35,306 nt of DNA from a virus (Duplodnaviria > Heunggongvirae > Uroviricota > Caudoviricetes): positions 1 to 35,306 of IMG/VR virus record IMGVR_UViG_2541046997_000001; one strand, given 5' to 3'. The notes under the pieces were generated by a model that worked only from the letters and a program-made list of their open reading frames with translations, did no database searches and had not been told where the DNA came from. Positions 21,595 to 32,576 of this stretch are shown piece after piece. The position numbers were made by a program, and so were the translations under genes. Position 1 is the first letter of the stretch; each line of letters begins with the position of its first letter.

Positions 21595-24500
21595 ATGGTT
21601 GAAGACAATGTCGCCCTTCTTTAGTGGAACAAATTGTGCTCCGCCTTCGATTAAGTGCCAACGTCCATCTCTAACAATTAACTCATTTCCAAGCTCATTT
21701 ACAAGAGAAGTTTGATTTTTAGAAACGCCCCAGTCACCACTTGCGTTCGCGTTACCAGAGTAGTGATACAAATTAGTAGTCCCATTTGCGTTGGCGGTTC
21801 CATTTGCCCCGGCTCCATCTCCCTTGACATTGTTTGTAACAGAAGTAATATATACAGTTTTACTTTGCACAGAAGAGATAGCAGAAGCAAGAGCTGATAC
21901 ATCCCCCGTTCCAGATGTAGTGGCAGATACAGTTACAGATTTGCTTTGTACAGAATCAATAGCTGCTTTTAATGCTTTTACCAAATCCGTTCCAGTTACA
22001 TTTGCTTTTGCATCAACAGTTTTTCCTTCAAGCGTTCCTAACGAAGCCTTTAATGCTCCGATGAGTTCCAAACCTGTAACATTTGCCATTACAGATACAG
22101 ATTTCGCTTCATTACTCAATCCATTTATGGAAGATTTTATTCCGTCAAGTTCATCTTTTCCAGATACACTTATTGAAACCGCCAATTCTCTATCATCAAG
22201 AGAAGACAGCATGGTTTCTAAAGCAGTAATGTCATCTTTTCCGGCAACGTTCACAGTTATGGTTACATCTTTGTCCTGTATATCTTCAAGATGTAAGTCT
22301 TCTTTTGTTTCAAGCCCAACGGGTATTTTAATCTCGTCAGACATTAATTGAGATGCAATCTCATCAGGACTTAATCCTTCAATATTTAATTCTGCCTTAA
22401 TCTCTGGCGAAATATTTGCAAGCTCAGATTTTGCAGTTTCTACCTTGCTTAATGCTTCATCAAGTTTACTCGTATCGACATTAGGTGTAGATGCAACTAT
22501 ATCTGCATTTGTAACAGCATCATAATAATTCTGGAACAGTTGAACTGCATTTTGTAGTTCCGCACTTGCATTACTTGTATCAACACTTAAAACAGCAGGC
22601 TCATTTAACTCTGCACGTTTCTGAATCAAAGTAGAAAGAACTTGCTGTGCAGATTCTAATTGAGAAGCATCACAATTAATTGAACCATCAGAGTTATATA
22701 AAGAATTAATATACTCTTTTGTTTTTTCAATTTCATTATATATAGAAGAATCTGTCTTAGCATTTACATTAATATCAACTTTCCCACCAGTAGCTTCTTT
22801 AATTGCGTCTGCTGCTAGAGTAGCTTTGGCAATAGCTTCGTCTAAAGTACCTGTTTCTACTGACACAGATGAAGGATTTTCCAGAAGTTTTTTACGTTCT
22901 ATAGCTTCTTCAAGTAATGTATTTAGATTTTCGACTTCTGCACTATCAACACCAAATTTAGTTTCTGACTCATCACGCGCTTTCGTTAATTCTGCGATTC
23001 GAGCATCTAATCCTTCCGCATCTAGCTTAGAGGTATCTACATCTAAATCAATTTCCGGGAAATCAGATCCAGCTTCTTTTAACTGTTGAAGATTGGTTTT
23101 TGCTTTTTCAGCTTGAGCAGATAAGTCAGCTATTTTCTGAGCATAATTAGAATCGCCACTCGTATCTCCAACACGAATAGTATCATCATATTCGGTCATT
23201 GCGCGATATAATGTTTGAACAGCTTCCTTACTAATATTTAACCTTTTTGCAATTTCTTCATCTGCTCCAGTTTGAAATTCAAGAACACCATTTTCTAACT
23301 CTTTTACCCATCCCAATCCTTCATTATCAGAAAGAGTTTTCATATCTGTAACAAAATTGTCAAGACCTTGCTTGGTTCCGGTAAAGTATTTATCAATTAC
23401 AGGGAGAGACGATTCATATGCGGCAACAACTTCTTTCATGGAAGCAGTAGCTAAATCTTGGTTAGAATAGAATTGTGATATAGCTCTAAATTCCTCGGTG
23501 TTATATCGACCTTCTTTATAGAGTTCTTTACCACGCTCACGCATCGTTTCAGAAACTGTACGGAACATATCGCCTTCTTCACCATTAGATTGAGCAGACA
23601 TCCATTTTTGGTAAGCAGAGGTTGCACCATCATAGGCGGCTGATAATTGATTTACTGCTTCAAGCTGGCGACTTAATCCGTCTATAACAAGTTGAGAATT
23701 ATTATATTCAGAAGAACCTTTGTCATAATTATTCTGTTCTGCATATGCTTTATTCAACTGCTCTTGAAGTGATTGTTGTTTTTCTGCAAACTTCCCTTTT
23801 GTTATAGCTTCTTGTTGTGCTTGTAACTGGCGTAAAGCTTCTCTGTTTAGATGAACGCCATTTGCGGTTTTTTCAAATAACGTTGCAGGATCATAACCTT
23901 CCAAATCTTCATATGCGGAGGCTATTGCACCAATATCGCCTTCAAGTTCTCCTGTTTCTTCATTGAGAGAAACACCTAGCCCTTTGCCAGTATAACTATT
24001 TGCTAATACAGCATTTAAAGATTCTACAGAATTAATTTGTGATACAACATCTTTCTGAAAATCAGAAAAACTTTCTTCAAGTTTAGTTAGACCAGTATCT
24101 TGACTAGCAAGTGCTGAAATTTCTTCTCTGAGTGTTTCAACGCTGACACCTGCTTCATTACAGGCAGCAACTAATTCAGGAAACCCCTTGGTAATTTCAT
24201 CAACAGACAATTTGTCTCCACTTCTAAAAGCGTCTACTAATTTCTGTTGCGCTTGAGCAAAATCATTATTTTCCCAAATTTTAGATAATGCTTTAGCTGC
24301 TTTGGCTTGAGGATTTTCCCTGGTATAATCATCAATCACTTTTGTGATATCATTGAATTTCTTTAATTCTTTTGAAGACAATCCTTCTTTAGCAGCACCC
24401 GTTGTTTCATCCATGAAATTCTTTCTAAGATCTTGAAGAGTTTTCATGTTTTCGGAAACAGCGTCTTCATACATTTTCATATCTGACTTAAGAGTTTCTA

Positions 24501-25476
24501 TTTCTCCATCAATTTCAGATTTTCTCTTTTTATCTTTTTTTGAAGTTCCTAAGCCATCACGTTCTTTTAAAAGTTCTTCTCTTGTATCTTTTAACTCATT
24601 TAAAGCTTTAACTTCGTTTTGAGTAGCTGTTAGAATATCTGTTTTTTCATATCCAGTGTTTTCTACTCCTTGTGTAGCATTTGCACCTGCAGCCATTCGA
24701 TCAATCCAGTTATCAGACTCTAATAGTTTCTGTTGAGATGATTTTGTTGTTAAGTCATAAGTTTCTCTTTTGTTTAGAGAATCCATTGCAGAGCCGACAG
24801 CTTCTTTAGCTTCTTTATCTGCAATTTCTTTCTTTAAATCTCTCTGACGTTCTAGTTCAGCATTTTGTAATTTCAGTTGTGAAAGTTCAGATTGCTCTAC
24901 AAGATTTAAAGTTCCTTTAGATTCAAGTTCTGAAATTCTTGTAGATGTTGTTTCTATTTCAGAATTTAAAGATTTTACTTCTGCCATTGTAGAAGCGTAA
25001 GCTGATTGCGCTTCTTTTGCTTCCTCAACAGATCTCTTCATTTCAGTAGCTTTTAGGTACGCTAACAATGCCGCACCACCAATAACAGCACCACCAGCGA
25101 TGTAAGGACCTGCTTTCTTAAATACACTCAACAATCCTTTTCCGGCATTCTTGAATCCTTGCATAGCTTTCTGCCCGGTAGTCATTCCATCGCCAAGACC
25201 GTCTAGTGTTTTCTTAAGTTCACTTACACCTTCGGCTGCATCGCCAGCCCCTTCGAGAATATCACCAAGTTGATCTTTCCAGTGAGTGGCTTTTAATGCA
25301 TCTTTTGCAAAACTTTTTGAAACACCAGAATGTTTAAGAATCTTTTCAACTTCTTCTAAATCTTTTGCATTGTCTAAAACATTTTTAAACTTATCAAACT
25401 TTTTAAAATCCGTTATATCGGATAAACCATTAAACTCATCAAACAGATCGGAATATTCCCCTATTTCTTTTAATGA
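21595..25476 (-). CDS. Tape measure protein, exon 2
   Basis: The frame is open for 97 codons between the proposed splice site and the ATG at 25185 (SLKEIGEYSDLF...), with no ATG/GTG/TTG in that stretch. Helical TMP composition ending 'LVNELGNELIVRDG..KGDIVFNH'. Confidence 0.8.
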
Positions 25477-25481
25477 CTGTG

Positions 25482-25490
25482 TGGTATAAT
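25482..25490 (+). promoter_or_regulatory. Extended -10 promoter for the plus-strand cargo genes
   Basis: TGgTATAAT about 50 nt upstream of the ATG at 25539, which has an AAGGAG RBS. Confidence 0.65.
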
Positions 25491-25538
25491 ATAAAAAATG
25501 TTTCTATCATTTATTATATATTTAAGGAGATGAATTTA

Positions 25539-26021
25539 ATGGCATTATTATGTTGTCATGAATGTAAAAATAAAGTTTCTGATAAAGCTGAGACATGTCC
25601 TCATTGTGGATGTCCAATAGTTATTGATAAAAACAAAGAAAGAAAATATTCTAAAGTGAATGGGATTACTTATGATGTAACCGAACTTGTCGATTTGATT
25701 CTTAATCGTAAAACAATTGATGACGATAATGAAGTAAGTGATATTATAAGGAAGACAATGGATATTTCCCCAGTTAAGTTTACTTTACCTACGGTAGAAC
25801 TTGGGAGAGCGCCGGAAGAAATTAACTGTGAAACATTATCCGACTTCTCAAAAAGACAACGAGTCATCCAAGCATCAAAAATTCATTGTCCAAACTGTAG
25901 GTCAACAGATGTAAAACGCATATCTGCAACCGAGAGAGCAGCATCTGTTATTGGACTTGGGTTGCTTTCCAAGAAGATAAATAAAACATACAAGTGTAAT
26001 AAATGTAAGTATACTTGGTAG
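25539..26021 (+). CDS. Zinc-ribbon protein (N- and C-terminal CxxC pairs), intron A cargo
   Basis: 'MALLCCHECKNKVSDKAETCPHCGCP' and 'CPNCRSTDVKRIS..KTYKCNKCKYTW'. AAGGAG RBS. Confidence 0.8.
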   Translation: MALLCCHECKNKVSDKAETCPHCGCPIVIDKNKERKYSKVNGITYDVTELVDLILNRKTIDDDNEVSDIIRKTMDISPVKFTLPTVELGRAPEEINCETLSDFSKRQRVIQASKIHCPNCRSTDVKRISATERAASVIGLGLLSKKINKTYKCNKCKYTW

Positions 26022-26087
26022 TGGTATAGTATAAATACAATAACTGCAGAATTTTAGTTATAATAATGAAATGAGAGGTAAATATAA

Positions 26088-26618
26088 ATGTTAGTAGTAT
26101 GTCCTGAGTGCAAAAACGAGGTAAGCCAATATGCAGAATCGTGTCCAAACTGTGGATTCCCAATTATTAAATTTATGAAAGATAGCAATTTAACAGATAC
26201 CGAAAAAGTTGAAATTTGTCCTAAATGTGGCAGATTCAGCGAAGGAACACCGTATTATTTAAAATGTGATTATTGTGGAAGTACAATGGCACAAACTGAT
26301 TTAACAATGGACGAATGGATATCCGTATTGATGAAAAAGGATGCTTTTTCTTTTGTCGAAGATATGGCTAATAAATATGGTAATAATCAATTTTCAGAAG
26401 AAATGTTTAATACGCGTATGGGGCACAATCACTCAAACAGTCATACAAGTGAGCAGAAAAAAGAAGAAACTAACATCCCTAAATGTCCCACTTGTGGAAG
26501 TACAAAAATACGTAAAATTTCTGGAACTAAAAGAGCTGCTTCGATACTTGGGTTTGGTATCTTGAGTAATAACATTGGGAAAACATATGAATGTTTAAAT
26601 TGTAAATACAAATGGTAG
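26088..26618 (+). CDS. Zinc-ribbon protein, paralog of 25539..26021
   Basis: 'CPECKNEVSQYAESCPNCGFP' and 'PKCPTCGSTKIRKIS..KTYECLNCKYKW'. GAGG RBS. Confidence 0.85.
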   Translation: MLVVCPECKNEVSQYAESCPNCGFPIIKFMKDSNLTDTEKVEICPKCGRFSEGTPYYLKCDYCGSTMAQTDLTMDEWISVLMKKDAFSFVEDMANKYGNNQFSEEMFNTRMGHNHSNSHTSEQKKEETNIPKCPTCGSTKIRKISGTKRAASILGFGILSNNIGKTYECLNCKYKW

Positions 26619-26622
26619 TAGC

Positions 26623-27321
26623 ATGGTGGAGACAAAATTACGCTGGTTAGAATACTGTAAAGAAATTAAAAACATCCCGCCAATACAAGAGATAAAGCTT
26701 CTTGATAAAAATGATTCATCACACGCAAGATTTAAATCAATAGATTTGTATAATCAAAAATATATCTTATATGTTCAAAAGGAGATATATGAATATACGG
26801 AGGTTTCGACAAGATCTATATTATTTCATGAATTTACTCATCTTGCGGACTCAATAAAATATAGAGATAAAAAATATGAAGTATTCCTTAATATAATGGC
26901 TTCTTACTCAGAATATCATGCAGCATATATCGAAATGATTCAAATTATCAAAAGCTGCAATAGTAAATTAGTAAACAAGGAATCAGAGGTTATTTACAGA
27001 GCCGGCTGTCTTACTTTAGAATCCCTTATGTCTCAATCATACACAGCAGCGATAAAATGTTTTGAAAAAATTGATGGGTCTTTTGGATTACATGAGTTTT
27101 TTTATTATTTAGGATATAGAAAAGCTTTACAAAAATATAATTTGGAATTTGATTTTAATTTCTTGGATTTCAATCCGTTATATATGATTTATATTAAAAA
27201 TATTTCTGATTATGTGGAATCTAATGATATTCCCAAAATGGCTGATGAGCACTCAAAATTATTACACTCTATTGATATGGAGATAGAATCAAATAAAATT
27301 TTGAATCATTTTAATATTTAA
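26623..27321 (+). CDS. HExxH putative zinc metallopeptidase
   Basis: 'ILFHEFTHLAD' followed by 'SEYHA' as a candidate third ligand. Starts 4 nt after the upstream stop. Confidence 0.7.
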   Translation: MVETKLRWLEYCKEIKNIPPIQEIKLLDKNDSSHARFKSIDLYNQKYILYVQKEIYEYTEVSTRSILFHEFTHLADSIKYRDKKYEVFLNIMASYSEYHAAYIEMIQIIKSCNSKLVNKESEVIYRAGCLTLESLMSQSYTAAIKCFEKIDGSFGLHEFFYYLGYRKALQKYNLEFDFNFLDFNPLYMIYIKNISDYVESNDIPKMADEHSKLLHSIDMEIESNKILNHFNI

Positions 27322-27423
27322 AAACTGTTGTTTTCTTATGTTGCTACTTGGCTCTGCCAGACAAAGCTGCAGACATCAATGACAACGACAAAGATCAAGA
27401 GGAGGAGAAGAACAGCGGCTATC

Positions 27424-27594
27424 TTATAACTCCACATTGCCCAAAATTTTTTCTTTAAACTTTTTTATAATTGAATAACATTCAGATTGGTTTACATCAG
27501 TGCCGCAATATAGCGTGTTGATTAAACACTTTACAATATAATTTTCTTTTTCTTCACGCTGTAAATAATTATCAACGAAATTATTGTCAAACAT
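27424..27594 (-). CDS. Small hypothetical protein (56 aa)
   Basis: GAGGTG RBS before MFDNNFVDNY. Lies back-to-back with 27626..28060. Confidence 0.5.
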   Translation of the reverse strand: MFDNNFVDNYLQREEKENYIVKCLINTLYCGTDVNQSECYSIIKKFKEKILGNVEL

Positions 27595-27625
27595 ATTAAC
27601 ACCTCGATTCTGAAAGGAGATTACC

Positions 27626-28060
27626 ATGAAATTAAATCCAGATTGTATTAGAGATGTATTACTCTATTTAGAAGCTGAATTAGAAGTAGACTTGGAAAAA
27701 CAAAATTTTACAAGAATTAGTCTTAAACAGATAAAAGAACATTTTGAAAATATTTATTTTGAAGAAGATATTTGGTATACAGTGTACAATCTTCGTGAAA
27801 TGAGATATATTTCTGGAAACTTGGGTGACGCCGGAAGGAGATTAATGATGTTTTGTGAAATAGACAATATAACTCCATATGGACACCAGTTTTTAAATAC
27901 TATAAGACCAAAGTCTATTTGGGACGCAACAAAATCAGGAGCGTCTAAGATAGGTATAACTTCTCTATCTGCATTAAGCACAATAGCAATGGAAATAACA
28001 AAATCAGTTGTAACGAGAAAAGACGTTATAGATGAAATTGTATCTCTAATAAAATTTTAA
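27626..28060 (+). CDS. DUF2513-like protein
   Basis: 'MKLNPDCIRDVLLYLE..ITPYGHQFLNTIR..IWDATK' is the family pattern. AAGGAG RBS. Confidence 0.8.
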   Translation: MKLNPDCIRDVLLYLEAELEVDLEKQNFTRISLKQIKEHFENIYFEEDIWYTVYNLREMRYISGNLGDAGRRLMMFCEIDNITPYGHQFLNTIRPKSIWDATKSGASKIGITSLSALSTIAMEITKSVVTRKDVIDEIVSLIKF

Positions 28061-28142
28061 CAGCACAAGAAATAATAATATCATTAATACAAAAATCTCG
28101 TTTGAATATCTAATATTTTACCGAGTATTGTTTTCAAGCACA

Positions 28143-28172
28143 AAAATAGAGCAGTAGTAGTTACTGCTCTTG
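28143..28172. terminator. Hairpin terminator between the convergent DUF2513 and type III toxin genes
   Basis: AGAGCAGTA-gtagt-TACTGCTCT with a U-tract on the minus strand. Confidence 0.65.
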
Positions 28173-28655
28173 ATTTATATTTAATTCTTTGTGAAAATAT
28201 TTTAATGTAGACATTCCATACTTTCTTTTAAAATCCATTTTTGGCAAAGTAATTTCATTATTCATGTGCAATACATATTCATCTACATACTTAAGAGAAT
28301 CTTCAACTATTTTTGATATAAATCTTTTTGTCTTCATATATTCATCTCTATCAATCATTGCAGGTTCGGACGAAACAAAGTTATGATTTTTGATAATCAC
28401 TATTTTACTATAGTCAAGTCCTGAATTATGTTTATTTGATCGTTTTGTATTTTGAAATTTAAAAGCATATTTATGATGAATTTCACTTCTATATGGTATA
28501 CAAACGAAATAATCATAATGTGTCTGAATTAATAAACAATTATACCCTCTATTTTTCTTTTTTAACAATTCTGGATATTCTTTTGATGGATAATTATCAT
28601 AAAAGGCTTCTGTTAATTTCAATATCTGAAAATCAAAAATATTTTCTTCTTCCAT
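28161..28655 (-). CDS. tenpN: Type III toxin-antitoxin endoribonuclease toxin, TenpN-like
   Basis: 'RGYNCLLIQTHYDYFVCIPYRSEI..SGLDYSKIVII'. Preceded by a promoter, tandem repeats and a terminator, the canonical type III layout. Confidence 0.85.
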   Translation of the reverse strand: MEEENIFDFQILKLTEAFYDNYPSKEYPELLKKKNRGYNCLLIQTHYDYFVCIPYRSEIHHKYAFKFQNTKRSNKHNSGLDYSKIVIIKNHNFVSSEPAMIDRDEYMKTKRFISKIVEDSLKYVDEYVLHMNNEITLPKMDFKRKYGMSTLKYFHKELNINQEQ

Positions 28656-28669
28656 TATTTCTCCTTAGT

Positions 28670-28695
28670 AAAAAAGAGAGGAATACCCTCTCTTA
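28670..28695 (-). terminator. Terminator between the antitoxin repeats and the toxin gene
   Basis: AAGAGAGG-GUAUU-CCUCUCUU-UUUU. Confidence 0.85.
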
Positions 28696-28702
28696 ATATA
28701 CT

Positions 28703-28863
28703 TCATCACTCGGTTACATTTTATTTTATCGATGTGTCAGAACCGTCACACATCATCATCACTCGGTTACATTTTATTTTATCGATGTGTCAGAACCGTC
28801 ACGCATCATCATCACTCGGTTACATTTTATTTTACCGTCCTGTCAGAACCGTCACAGGACTCA
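28703..28863 (-). ncRNA. tenpI: Type III antitoxin RNA (TenpI-like): three tandem ~53-nt pseudoknot repeats
   Basis: Units start at 28703, 28756 and 28809. Stem GAUGUG/CACAUC (GUCCUG/CAGGAC in one unit). Loop CGGUU pairs the downstream AACCG. Confidence 0.88.
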
Positions 28864-28904
28864 TATGTGATGAATTGAGAAAACACTGTGGTCTTCTTAT
28901 TTAT

Positions 28905-28933
28905 ATTATATCCAACAATCGGAGAAAAGTCTA
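28905..28933 (-). promoter_or_regulatory. Promoter of the type III TA operon
   Basis: TAGACT-17 nt-TATAAT. Confidence 0.75.
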
Positions 28934-29000
28934 CTAAAAATATAGCTAATAAAACAAGATGAATTTATGCAAAATATACAAATAGAGCAGTGGTTAGTAT

Positions 29001-29165
29001 CTATCGTATAATTCCACAAATTTTCTTATCACCAGATAAAACATCTATTGACCAGTTTATAGGAATAATATCTTTTAACGCTTCTTCGGAAGAAACGATT
29101 TTTAATTTTCTTCCGGATAATTTAGAAAAATCTAATCGTCTTTTTTTCTTCTCAACCATATACAT
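29001..29165 (-). CDS. Small hypothetical protein (54 aa)
   Basis: MYMVEKKKRRLDFSKLSGRKLKIVSSEEALKDIIPINWS... AAGGGA RBS. Not in the ORF track. Confidence 0.55.
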   Translation of the reverse strand: MYMVEKKKRRLDFSKLSGRKLKIVSSEEALKDIIPINWSIDVLSGDKKICGIIR

Positions 29166-29185
29166 ATTTGTCCCTTCTATAAAAA

Positions 29186-29773
29186 TTAACTATACACAAT
29201 TTCAATTCTATCAAAGTCTTTCGTGTTTAACACAATAAGCTCTTTCGGATTATTAGAATTGTCGATTATAACATTTGCTTCCTCGTCCAATTTTTGATAC
29301 ATCGTTAACGCAATTATTGGTTCATCTTTGTTTGATTGACCATATTTATATAATCCAAGATATGACTTTCCGTCTTTTAAAAATACTCTTACCCATGTAT
29401 TATCTTTGAAAATATCCATCCAAAAATCGTCATTAGTTGTGCGGTAAATATGTAATTTTAACAAAAGATTATTGAATGCTGTTGAATGGCATAATTCACC
29501 TAAAATTACTCCTAATAACAAACCAATAATTGTGAGTAAAATAATACGCTGGTCTGGTAAAATAATGATCTTGGCTTTCTTCAAAATAAAATCAAATACA
29601 ATACCAAGAATATAGCTTGCAGCAACGCTTTTGATAATTAAATTGTTAAAATTTTTATGATCTACAAAAGATACCCAATAATAAGTGGATAAAAAAATAT
29701 ATCCAGGAATTACAAAAGATAATATGTATGGTATATTATCTATAAGATCAATTATCCAATTTATACTTATCAC
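29186..29773 (-). CDS. Membrane protein, DUF6338-like
   Basis: Three hydrophobic segments, with 'FVIPGYIF' and 'DDFW..WVRVFLKDGKSYLG'. Confidence 0.7.
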   Translation of the reverse strand: MISINWIIDLIDNIPYILSFVIPGYIFLSTYYWVSFVDHKNFNNLIIKSVAASYILGIVFDFILKKAKIIILPDQRIILLTIIGLLLGVILGELCHSTAFNNLLLKLHIYRTTNDDFWMDIFKDNTWVRVFLKDGKSYLGLYKYGQSNKDEPIIALTMYQKLDEEANVIIDNSNNPKELIVLNTKDFDRIEIVYS

Positions 29774-29919
29774 CTCTGATTTTCATTATTGTTTTGAGAT
29801 TCAGATTGTCTTACCGGAGGGGTAGTGTTTTCCGTTGTAGAATTCCTCTGATAACTTGAAATCTCAAAAACGGGATTATTTGTATTTTGGTTTCTTTTTG
29901 TTTCATCTTCTGTTCCCAT
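29770..29919 (-). CDS. Small hydrophilic peptide (49 aa) coupled to the membrane protein
   Basis: AAGGAG RBS. MGTEDETKRNQ...; the TGA overlaps the next GTG (GTGA). Confidence 0.6.
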   Translation of the reverse strand: MGTEDETKRNQNTNNPVFEISSYQRNSTTENTTPPVRQSESQNNNENQR

Positions 29920-29981
29920 ATTTATTCTCCTTTTCTAAACTTATATTTATTATAACTCGTACTAGAATAGAAGAGTAGTCG

Positions 29982-29993
29982 GAACATGTGTTT
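29982..29993. promoter_or_regulatory. LexA (Cheo-box)-like site upstream of the intron A cargo promoter
   Basis: GAAC-ATGT-GTTT, one mismatch to GAAC-N4-GTTC. Minus-strand TATAAT at 29949-29954. Confidence 0.5.
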
Positions 29994-30635
29994 TGTTTTT
30001 GTGTAAATTTTCTCATATCACTGGAACCAAACAGCATTAGAGATTTGCTGCTAGAAAATAATCCGAAGATTATATTGGTTACGGCACTCCAGATTTTGCC
30101 GGAAGTTTTAAAAGCATATATCTATGCCACACATGGTACTGACAGTCTATGTTAAGTCAGATTGCCAGTAACGTATTACTAAAACTTTTCTAAATCGCAA
30201 TACGCACTATGCCTTAAAAGAAGAATAGCATTTATGGCAGTTATTCTCTCCGAGGATGGGTATGTCTCTGGGGATACTATCTGTTAATGACCTTCATTAT
30301 ATACGCCAAAAGAATTAACTCAGATATTGTCCTGCTCGTTGTCCTTTATATTCTTACTTAGATGTCTTAACATTTTCATATTAATATTCATATAAGAACA
30401 AATCATTTATTTGGGTTTCCCTACCTACTGTTATGGGTATGATTTGCAAAATAAGATTTCAAGCATTTACTCCTCTATGGGTCAAAACCATAATAAATAT
30501 ATGGAACTCACCATGCTCCGCCACTTGATATTACAATGCCATAATATTGTAAATCTTATGTCGGCTAGACTCATATATAATATAGGAATATTTTACTTAT
30601 TTTATTATATATGTAACCCTGTGTTTTATAGGTTA

Positions 30636-32576
30636 ATCTAAGTTTTTAAAAAATGCAAAAGCTCCTCCCCCAATTGAAAGCACTCCAAGTGGTGATACTG
30701 CTTTTACCAATCCGTCAAATCCTTTAACTAACTGATTAATTAGTTGAACTGCGGATGTAATTTGTCCTGCATCTGCAAAGTTTGAAATAAATTGTTGCCA
30801 AGAGTTAGAAAGTTGATTTAAGCTTCCTTTCCAGTTATTTGCTGACTTTTCTGCTTCAATGGCTGCACTACCTGATCCTTCAGAATAATCTTTTAGCATT
30901 TTGTCATAATCTTGCTGACCTGAAAGAATGGATGCGAGAACATTGGCATGATGTTTTTGACCGATATTATTTAAAATATCTGCTTTTTCGGTCGATCCGT
31001 CTGGTAAAGCATTATATACATCAGACAATTCTTTTAGTAATTCGATAGGTGTTTTTAAATATTCTGAATCCCCTACCATTTTTGTCATTGAAATCCCAAC
31101 ATTATCTAAAGTGCTTACAACTTTATCGTTGGAAGTATTTGTTAAGTTGACAAATAAGGCTTTTAATGCGGTTCCAATTTCGTTCCCCGATTTTTTTGTT
31201 CTCGAGACAGCTGTGCCGACCAAAGCGGATAATTCGTTTACAGAAACACCTGTTTGCGCCGCCATAGAACCTGCCTGAGTCGTAGCTTCTGCAAGATCTG
31301 TCATTGAAACGCTGTTCCTGTTACTTATCATATTTTGTCCGTCAAGTACATCGTTCAATTTCTGAGCAGAGCCTGCATATTCGTAAGCAGCATTAGTAGC
31401 CAGTAGATAACTATTAGCCGTGTCAGCATTCATATCACCGGCAGCTTGTGCCAACACTGACACATTTGCCATATCAACTCCCTGCTGTCCATAAAATCCG
31501 CTTCGGCTCATTTCTGTAACACCTTGTAAATAATCGGTTACAGTTTTACCATAATTACTTGCATATCCATAAGCATCTTGCCTTAACTGTTTTAGAGAAG
31601 AAGATGATAAATCAGATGTTTTAGAAATTTCAGTAAGAATGTCATCAACTTGTTTAAGCCGTTCAATTGATTGTGATATTGAGTCAATACCTCTTTCAAT
31701 CACGCCGTATGTAGTTGCAAACTGTGCGATTTGCTTAAAACCCCTACCCAACTCATTGAGTACAGATCGACCGGTGACTCCTTCGGCTTCTGCACGAGCT
31801 TTGACAAGAGCGACTTGTTTATTTAAATCATTTAATTGCCATTTACTAGTCGCCTCTTGTTGTAATTTTGCTAGTTGTTGCAATTCCTGACGGTACGCTT
31901 TTGTAAGCTTTGTATTTTTTTCTACAAATGAAATAGTTTTTTGACTTGCAATCAGACCTTCATTATGTTTTAATAATCCGCTTTGTGAATTCGCTGCAAT
32001 CTTAGTTTCGTTATTACATTTTTCAATTGCTTTCTGAAGCCTATTGTAATCTTCAATAACGTCACTAATATTGCTGTTACTTTTTAAATTAAAACTATCA
32101 TCAAAATTACCTTTGAGTTTCTCTGACAGATTATTTACATTTTTTAAAGATGACTCTAAATTTTTAAATTCACTACCATCTAAGCTATATTCAAGATTTT
32201 TAATTTGCTTACCTAAATTAGAAACGTCCAAATCTAATTTGCTTGTTGATAATTTTCTTTGAATACTTTGTATAGTTTGTTCTGTTTGTTTGGCGGCATT
32301 TGCCTGTGCTTTACTTAAATCAAAGTCAAAACTAATTTTATTTTTCTTATTACTAACAGACGATTGAAAACTACTTGAAAATTTTCTTCCAGCTGACGAC
32401 CCGGATCGTTCAATGTCCTTTATTAAATTGGGAATGCTAGAAGCATTAAATTTCGCATCATCTATTCCAAGTTTAATGGTGTGTTCTTTTGCCGTTAATT
32501 TGTCCAGCTTCGCCTGTGCAGCATCTAGCGCAGAATCCTGAACTTTTGCAACGACATCAACTTCGTATTGACTCAT
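30636..32576 (-). CDS. Tape measure protein, exon 1 (TP901-family core)
   Basis: GAAAGGAG RBS. 'VDDILTEISKTSD..EMSRSG..GNEIGTALK..GSAAIEAEKSANNWKGSLNQLSNSW'. The TAA that ends the ORF is the first codon of predicted intron A. Confidence 0.92.

Follow-up and report, generated by a model that had tools for sequence, protein, structure and literature searches.

Group I introns have been described in the tape-measure genes of Bacillus cereus-group prophages, where TMP-IVS1, TMP-IVS2, and TMP-IVS3 interrupt the gene in frame, have an early stop codon, and, as described there, carry at most one homing endonuclease gene; one site can host different introns (PMC2504315). In the IStrons CdISt1 and BcISt1, the P9 region of a group I ribozyme holds a large DNA payload, an IS element that is hidden by splicing (PMC4227781). 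An opposite-strand gene with its own promoter inside a group I intron is known from I-DirII, and the "core creep" of open reading frames into intron helices gives structural bases a second role, the cases described being a eukaryotic promoter for Pol II and overlaps with coding sequence (PMC3073962). Extended -10 promoters of Gram-positive bacteria have the consensus TRTGNTATAAT, with transcription expected to start 6 to 8 nt downstream (PMC5036317).

Here we analyze the stretch of 35,306 nt (the window) at the start of a 164-kb virus record (G000) that is classed as a provirus. The minus strand of the window is a tail-gene cluster of a temperate gut phage in which the tape-measure gene is fragmented, and the hosts of related loci are mostly of the Lachnospiraceae type, judging from record titles. 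The element that interrupts the gene resembles the TMP-IVS introns in its location, in-frame position, and early stop codon, and different introns again occupy one site, but across these introns the cargo consists of 2 to 7 kb of variable genes on both strands. It shares with the IStrons a group I ribozyme and a large P9-region payload that splicing would hide, but its host gene and site do not vary, and neither a transposase nor TnpB, as components of the IS200/IS605 or IS607 type, was found in the window intron; a TnpB/Cas12f-like gene forms only one of 48 cargo families (in L192). As in I-DirII, an opposite-strand gene would have its own promoter, and as in core creep, structural bases would have a second role; of these cases, only this one would place a bacterial promoter over a 3' docking helix. 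The promoter sequence matches the Gram-positive consensus exactly, but lies at an intron end with its -35 region inside the exon of another gene. Our literature search, in which coverage of subscription papers was limited, found no description of tape-measure introns with several genes, nor of a promoter that overlaps P9.0.

With a probability of about 0.6, we read the stretch around position 25,477 as the 3' terminus of a group I intron that carries cargo, likely splices itself, and interrupts a prophage tape-measure gene. At this terminus, in that reading, the plus strand matches an extended -10 consensus and likely drives an antisense zinc-ribbon operon, and six bases of the minus strand form a predicted helix that docks the terminal G.

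A large group I-like intron in the tape-measure gene

The features of the locus are listed in Table 1. The reading frame of the tape-measure gene leaves exon 1 at 30636 and picks up at 25476 with SLKEIG, such that the exon join ...KNLD/SLKEIG is in frame and the predicted terminal G is G25477. Many database proteins terminate at the same KNLD end as exon 1, and the gene is uninterrupted in about 15 fetched loci, demonstrating that intron-less alleles exist. When the exon join was folded as a duplex with the intron start, the guide paired with both exon ends, as expected for a group I intron. The first ∼630 nt of the intron are 98 to 100% identical among close phages with differing cargo.

Table 1. 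Positions of features at the tape-measure intron and the basis of each assignment.
Feature	Position	Strand	Basis
Tape-measure protein exon 1, 647 codons, end ...FFKNLD	30636..32576	-	PF10145, E 1e-22; TIGR01760; homologous proteins
Tape-measure exon 2	21595..25476	-	Lower end approximate, set by eye from next intron
Group I-like intron, 5159 nt, cargo genes in 3' domain	25477..30635	-	In-frame join, guide pairing, terminal G; splicing predicted
Predicted internal guide: P10 with exon-2 start, P1 with exon-1 end, U.G pair	30565..30574	-	Duplex fold
Predicted ribozyme core: P, Q, R, S-like motifs, P3, P4, P6, P8, atypical P7	30203..30468	-	Alignment and pair counts
5' strand of predicted 6-bp P9.0-like docking helix	30128..30133	-	Two-strand fold; pairs kept in seven lineage members
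Predicted local hairpin taking would-be partner of -10 hexamer	30114..30127	-	5 pairs, paired to 100%, two-sided changes at 2 of them in 4 sequences
3' strand of docking helix, adjoins terminal G; promoter positions -19 to -14 on plus strand	25478..25483	-	Predicted fold
Predicted terminal (omega) G	25477..25477	-	G before exon 2 in 40/40 sister-lineage loci, with placement by peptide motif only
Predicted extended -10 promoter TRTGnTATAAT, without -35 box, start expected near 25497	25480..25490	+	Consensus match, enrichment in relatives
Zinc-ribbon gene 1, 160 aa, family usually in first place	25539..26021	+	Protein search
Zinc-ribbon gene 2, 176 aa, preceded by a weaker extended -10-like site of its own (5 of 6)	26088..26618	+	Protein search
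Two more antisense cargo genes: 232 aa without family; 144 aa DUF2513	26623..28060	+	Protein search
Terminator-like hairpin scoring on both strands, between converging cargo blocks	28148..28170	.	Predicted
Type III toxin-antitoxin: three 53-nt repeats (28703-28861), TenpIN-family toxin (28655-28161)	28161..28861	-	NF047358, E 5.5e-48
Sense cargo gene DUF6338	29186..29773	-	Protein search

The predicted ribozyme core contains motifs that we take to be the P, Q, R, and S elements of group I introns. Across seven aligned cores, P3, P4, and P6 are paired to 100%, 98%, and 100%, respectively, at mostly invariant positions, P9 is paired within the range of 98 to 100% and covaries, and P8, as drawn here, is paired to only 59%. 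The exception to a standard core is P7, in which the guanosine-site G, in the standard register, faces G or A and not C in 7/7 cores; the opposing bases also fit the covarying P9 helix. In a possible alternative, P9 and P9.1 interrupt the P7 strand, and a CC just before the docking arm supplies the rest of it, a model for which covariation was sought and none was seen. Since P7 is atypical, we infer splicing from the other features of the element, which we consider likely to be a self-splicing group I intron. No Rfam match was obtained in the window at E ≤ 1, although the same scan also missed two more canonical-looking introns of the same gene, and blastn of the ribozyme against an annotated phage collection returned no match.

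The tape-measure precursor strand must cross two terminator-like hairpins, at 28694-28674, between the repeats and the toxin gene of the toxin-antitoxin pair, and at 28170-28148 (minus strand), implying read-through or trans-splicing. Together with the missing canonical guanosine-site G-C pair of all seven cores, these minus-strand sites could be taken to mean that there is no canonical cis-splicing, and that the intron halves meet in trans or depend on antitermination or a helper, the short arm being an intermolecular docking signal. We regard this as highly unlikely: the terminal G is present in 40/40 independently placed loci, P3, P4, P6, and P9 are paired to 98 to 100%, P7 appears canonical by eye in other lineages at the same site, and no clear sense promoter was identified for a separate 3' transcript.

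Several further observations concern the intron and its gene. The canonical P7 G-C pair is absent across both the window's lineage (KNLD) and the KNFD lineage (window 30270-30203 and 30136-30135, minus strand; L012, L008, L010, L231, L236, and L245), and the terminal G is constant regardless. At the 5' splice site of L031 and L088, the U.G pair has apparently become C.A, with both sides changed. By eye, the hairpin loops at 30530-30520 and about 30240-30230 (minus strand) show complementarity over 7 to 8 bases in several relatives and might contact each other. Two further group I-looking introns lie in the same gene, at about 21594-20130 and about 18335-17008 (minus strand), one with an endonuclease gene (PHROG matches) and the other with a GNAT acetyltransferase gene and a small upstream open reading frame; both are missing from L001, L003, and the X3 contig. 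Contigs from eight sequencing runs, mostly probably of DNA, contained no spliced joint of the present intron. The joint of X3 at the third intron sits in a 16.7-kb contig and was taken as an intron-less DNA allele and not as a product of splicing. Exon 1 is broken further upstream in L029-L031, L037-L039, L088, L101-L107, L111, and L131, which suggests more introns in the same gene.

A predicted docking helix beside the terminal G

The preliminary description had a 17-nt arm of the minus strand pairing with the ribozyme core beside the terminal G. A shorter version of this pairing holds in the two-strand fold, in which 30133-30128 and 25483-25478 form a helix of 6 bp directly beside G25477, with 25478-25483 comprising the TGTG extension of the promoter plus two bases. 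The TATAAT hexamer is predicted to be unpaired, with a pairing probability not exceeding 0.1 at four positions, since the sequence that could pair with it is taken up by a local hairpin. On the basis of this fold and the two-sided changes in the partner hairpin, we dropped the 17-nt arm as the main model. A longer helix is only disfavored, since arm positions 9 to 11, beyond a constant C.A mismatch, are still formally pairable in 6/7 lineage members. Searches for helices, in the window as in its relatives, covered the 3' part of the ribozyme and the final 60 nt of the intron; in the window, the docking helix was the best long-range helix, with -10.4 kcal/mol as compared to -4.6 kcal/mol for the next. 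A third pairing, located about 24 to 29 nt away from the G, is weak at -2.7 kcal/mol, and an alternative partner at about 30036-30008, found in the first duplex scan, was rejected because it is not conserved in L006, L008, and L010.

A predicted extended -10 promoter on the plus strand

The preliminary description also noted a perfect TGnTATAAT ahead of the zinc-ribbon operon, and this was confirmed on the plus strand, the string quoted there beginning at 25478. The motif is composed of TRTG (25480-25483), the n position (G25484), and TATAAT (25485-25490). No -35 box was found: spacings of 16 to 18 nt give ATTTCT, TATTTC, or CTATTT, all within tape-measure exon 2. The Shine-Dalgarno sequence AAGGAG (25524-25529) is followed by an ATG at 25539, 42 nt past the expected start. 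The bare TGnTATAAT occurs four times in the window versus 4.4 expected, i.e., not above chance, and the 164-kb genome contains two copies of the full TRTGnTATAAT.

To place these features among relatives, 246 loci were fetched by protein and pattern searches, and both splice sites were placed in 93 of them, including repeats of one contig. Intron-less alleles, truncated contigs, chance pattern matches, most duplicates, and loci with an unplaceable 3' site (e.g., L047, L052, L056, L071, L090, L123, and L131) were left out. The splice sites were curated by hand because the automatic pick often put the wrong site first. For 53 placements a terminal G was required, so the terminal-G count is circular for these; the other 40 were placed by peptide motif, and G was present in 40/40. 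The tails fell into 39 clusters, comprising 36 of large introns and 3 of cargo-free introns, and because the clusters are related the counts below are of non-independent events. A scan with 14-mers gave 9 relevant loci among 51, all on contigs already in the set.

An antisense TGn followed by a hexamer matching at least 5/6 was present within the last 60 nt in 23/36 large-intron clusters and was perfect in 13. The controls gave a mean of 2.6 (maximum 6) for shuffled sequences, 2 for the sense strand, 2/36 for exon 2, and 0/3 for the cargo-free introns. Thus, the promoter is enriched at the intron end in a strand-specific manner, across unrelated tails, and far above chance. An antisense open reading frame starts within 170 nt of the intron end in 36/36 clusters under a relaxed rule for calling such frames, which bears out the proposed check that homologs should always have a plus-strand gene here. 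Taken together, the sequences indicate that the antisense promoter at the cargo-intron end is probably real and functional.

It could be argued that RNA pairing and A+T richness constrain this sequence, with the promoter match unused and the operon driven from elsewhere. The chance-level frequency of TGnTATAAT in the window is in line with that idea, to which we give hardly any credence: the hexamer is invariant even though it is predicted to be unpaired, and the enrichment is specific to one strand and extends across unrelated tails, with few sites in exon 2 (2/36). As a separate observation, a mere 24 nt or so separates the splice site from the start of the antisense gene at the 3' end of L206 and L236, which would put the promoter of this gene largely in exon 2.

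Overlap of the predicted promoter and helix within one lineage

Seven members of the window's lineage were compared. The pairs of the docking helix are kept in 6, 6, 6, 5, 6, 6, and 4 of 6 positions (L004 read one base shifted), and the outer pair swaps from U-A to A-U, one compensatory change that lies outside the promoter consensus. TGTG and TATAAT are fixed in 6/7 members with G, A, C, or T at the n position, and the first base of the hexamer faces a constant C.A mismatch in 6/6 promoter-bearing members; in L010 the TG is lost and the helix has 4/6 pairs. This pattern of variation fits a dual use of TGTG. TGTG coincides with the docking strand in this lineage, and these four bases are therefore probably under two constraints.

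That TGTG is kept for transcription alone, the predicted 6-bp helix being dispensable or coincidental, is an unlikely reading. It would suit the sister lineage, which has the same core and a constant terminal G with no comparable arm, the low complexity of the helix (a 6-bp TG/CA dinucleotide repeat found in about six related types), and the deviations of L010 and L058, but it sits poorly with a helix that abuts the terminal G and is the best long-range pairing in the window by the energies given above, and with the compensatory swap in the outer pair. In the reading that we prefer, in which both helix and promoter operate, four bases would couple the expression of prophage accessory genes to the splicing of an essential tail gene.

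Beyond this lineage the overlap is not general. The promoter matched in at least 4/6 hexamer positions in 25 clusters; the TG lay inside the best-supported long-range helix in 6 of these, all in the window's lineage (with that of L058 displaced), a weaker second copy of the arm overlapped the TG in 4, and in 15 the promoter was apart from the helix or none was found, the helix of L245 being weak at -3.8 kcal/mol. Where lineages have a separate promoter, their conserved arms are 17 to 46 nt from the terminal G. The sister KNFD lineage, with the same odd core, is without a comparable arm and keeps its antisense genes, with a promoter match in 7/11 clusters, mostly at +17/+18. The claim that cargo expression and splice-site recognition are locked together thus survives as a placement of TGTG in a predicted helix within this lineage and fails elsewhere. 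We conclude that the overlap of promoter and dock, well supported in this lineage alone, is a lineage-specific detail of a wider family of cargo introns.

The junction was also compared across changes in its surroundings. The last 20 nt of the intron are 95 to 100% identical in L001 and L002, versus 64 to 73% for gene 1 and early exon 2, and contigs from one study in which both flanks are replaced retain the 61-nt junction (25460-25520) apart from two differences. In L058 (14140-14260), the ribozyme is identical to that of the window, the tail and the start of exon 2 differ, and the nearest in-frame G, chosen by us, is about 18 nt away from the arm and promoter.

Antisense operon and other cargo genes

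In 31/36 clusters, the first antisense gene is a member of a single family, characterized by a C-terminal zinc ribbon, and members of this family in the cargo are antisense in 37/37 cases. Searches of the ESM Atlas matched the zinc-ribbon proteins to unnamed clusters only. An extended -10 of their own was found for 36/58 first genes as compared to 10/48 internal antisense genes and 11/80 sense genes. Because the genes in second position vary across loci and mostly have no extended -10, read-through from the end promoter is plausible.

This arrangement had been likened to an integron, in which the fixed promoter Pc lies ahead of a variable gene array. A fixed promoter before a variable array is indeed common to both, and the variable second genes, mostly without an extended -10, make a loose likeness plausible. 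Unlike in an integron, the first slot is here nearly fixed, gene 2 has a weaker site of its own, and a second block of cargo is transcribed from the opposite end. No tyrosine-recombinase integrase was present among 21 window proteins or 47 cargo family representatives, and neither attI nor an attC-like repeat was found, the 53-nt antitoxin array being the only recurring inter-gene repeat in the window intron. The analogy is accordingly loose, and the suggestion that any gene landing beside the arm gains a promoter does not agree with a first gene of the same family in 31/36 clusters and with the lack of an integrase or attC-like repeat.

A strong form of this idea would have splice recognition and cargo expression obligatorily locked across the introns, as an integron-Pc-like platform for any gene. 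It can draw on the 6 clusters with overlap and the 4 more in which a second, weaker arm copy covers the promoter, on the 46-aa open reading frame outside the zinc-ribbon family that lies directly behind the same promoter in L014, and on the low share of internal antisense genes with an extended -10. Nevertheless, we consider it distinctly improbable given that the best long-range helices do not include the TG in 15/25 promoter-bearing clusters, in which conserved arms are remote from the terminal G, that antisense genes and promoters mostly at +17/+18 are retained by the armless KNFD lineage, that one family dominates the first slot, and that scanning of the cargo revealed no integrase and the window intron showed, apart from the antitoxin array, no repeat recurring between genes.

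The cargo families across loci include ToxN/AbiQ, PemK-like, TIR, Mrr, GmrSD, RelA/SpoT, and antirepressor proteins. In the window, no cargo gene was identified as an endonuclease, and PADLOC gave no match for five cargo proteins and the DUF2513 protein. Just after the ribozyme, at 29993-29949 (minus strand), a LexA-box-like palindrome, together with a TATAAT, faces the sense cargo; L037, L083, and other loci have similar sites downstream of the ribozyme. With such sites facing the sense cargo, transcription of the cargo may proceed inward from the two intron ends.

Possible origin and use of the arrangement

Geometry is the likely driver of the arrangement. These introns retain an antisense transcription unit where the cargo loop meets the 3' end. 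We infer that an extended -10 is favored and pushed against the splice site because a -35 box would fall in the tape-measure coding sequence. In other lineages at the same site, the promoter and the arm are separate. The provirus status of the record points to the promoter probably providing expression by the host polymerase in the lysogen, when the late tail operon would be silent. Cargo turnover probably takes place by homologous recombination between fixed anchors, namely the ribozyme, the ends of the zinc-ribbon gene, and the junction, and not by an integrase.

A broader and more tentative account, which we put forward as a possibility with the balance against it, is that giant group I introns at one tape-measure site are splice-hidden accessory islands, with cargo, including toxin-antitoxin and defense-like genes, read inward from both ends, and that in this lineage the 3' junction is a single conserved module serving as splice dock, promoter, and recombination anchor, alongside a non-canonical guanosine-binding helix. 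Such a module would allow cargo to be swapped with no loss of tail assembly or expression. The wider interest lies in the carrier: multi-gene group I introns would be hotspots for accessory genes in temperate gut phages, they would explain the fragmented look of these tape-measure genes in databases, and their cargo would mark where to seek new defense genes. A possible exchange point was also noted at the border between ribozyme and cargo, where the otherwise unrelated ribozymes of L006, L018, L022, and L031 have a stretch of ∼20 nt in common.
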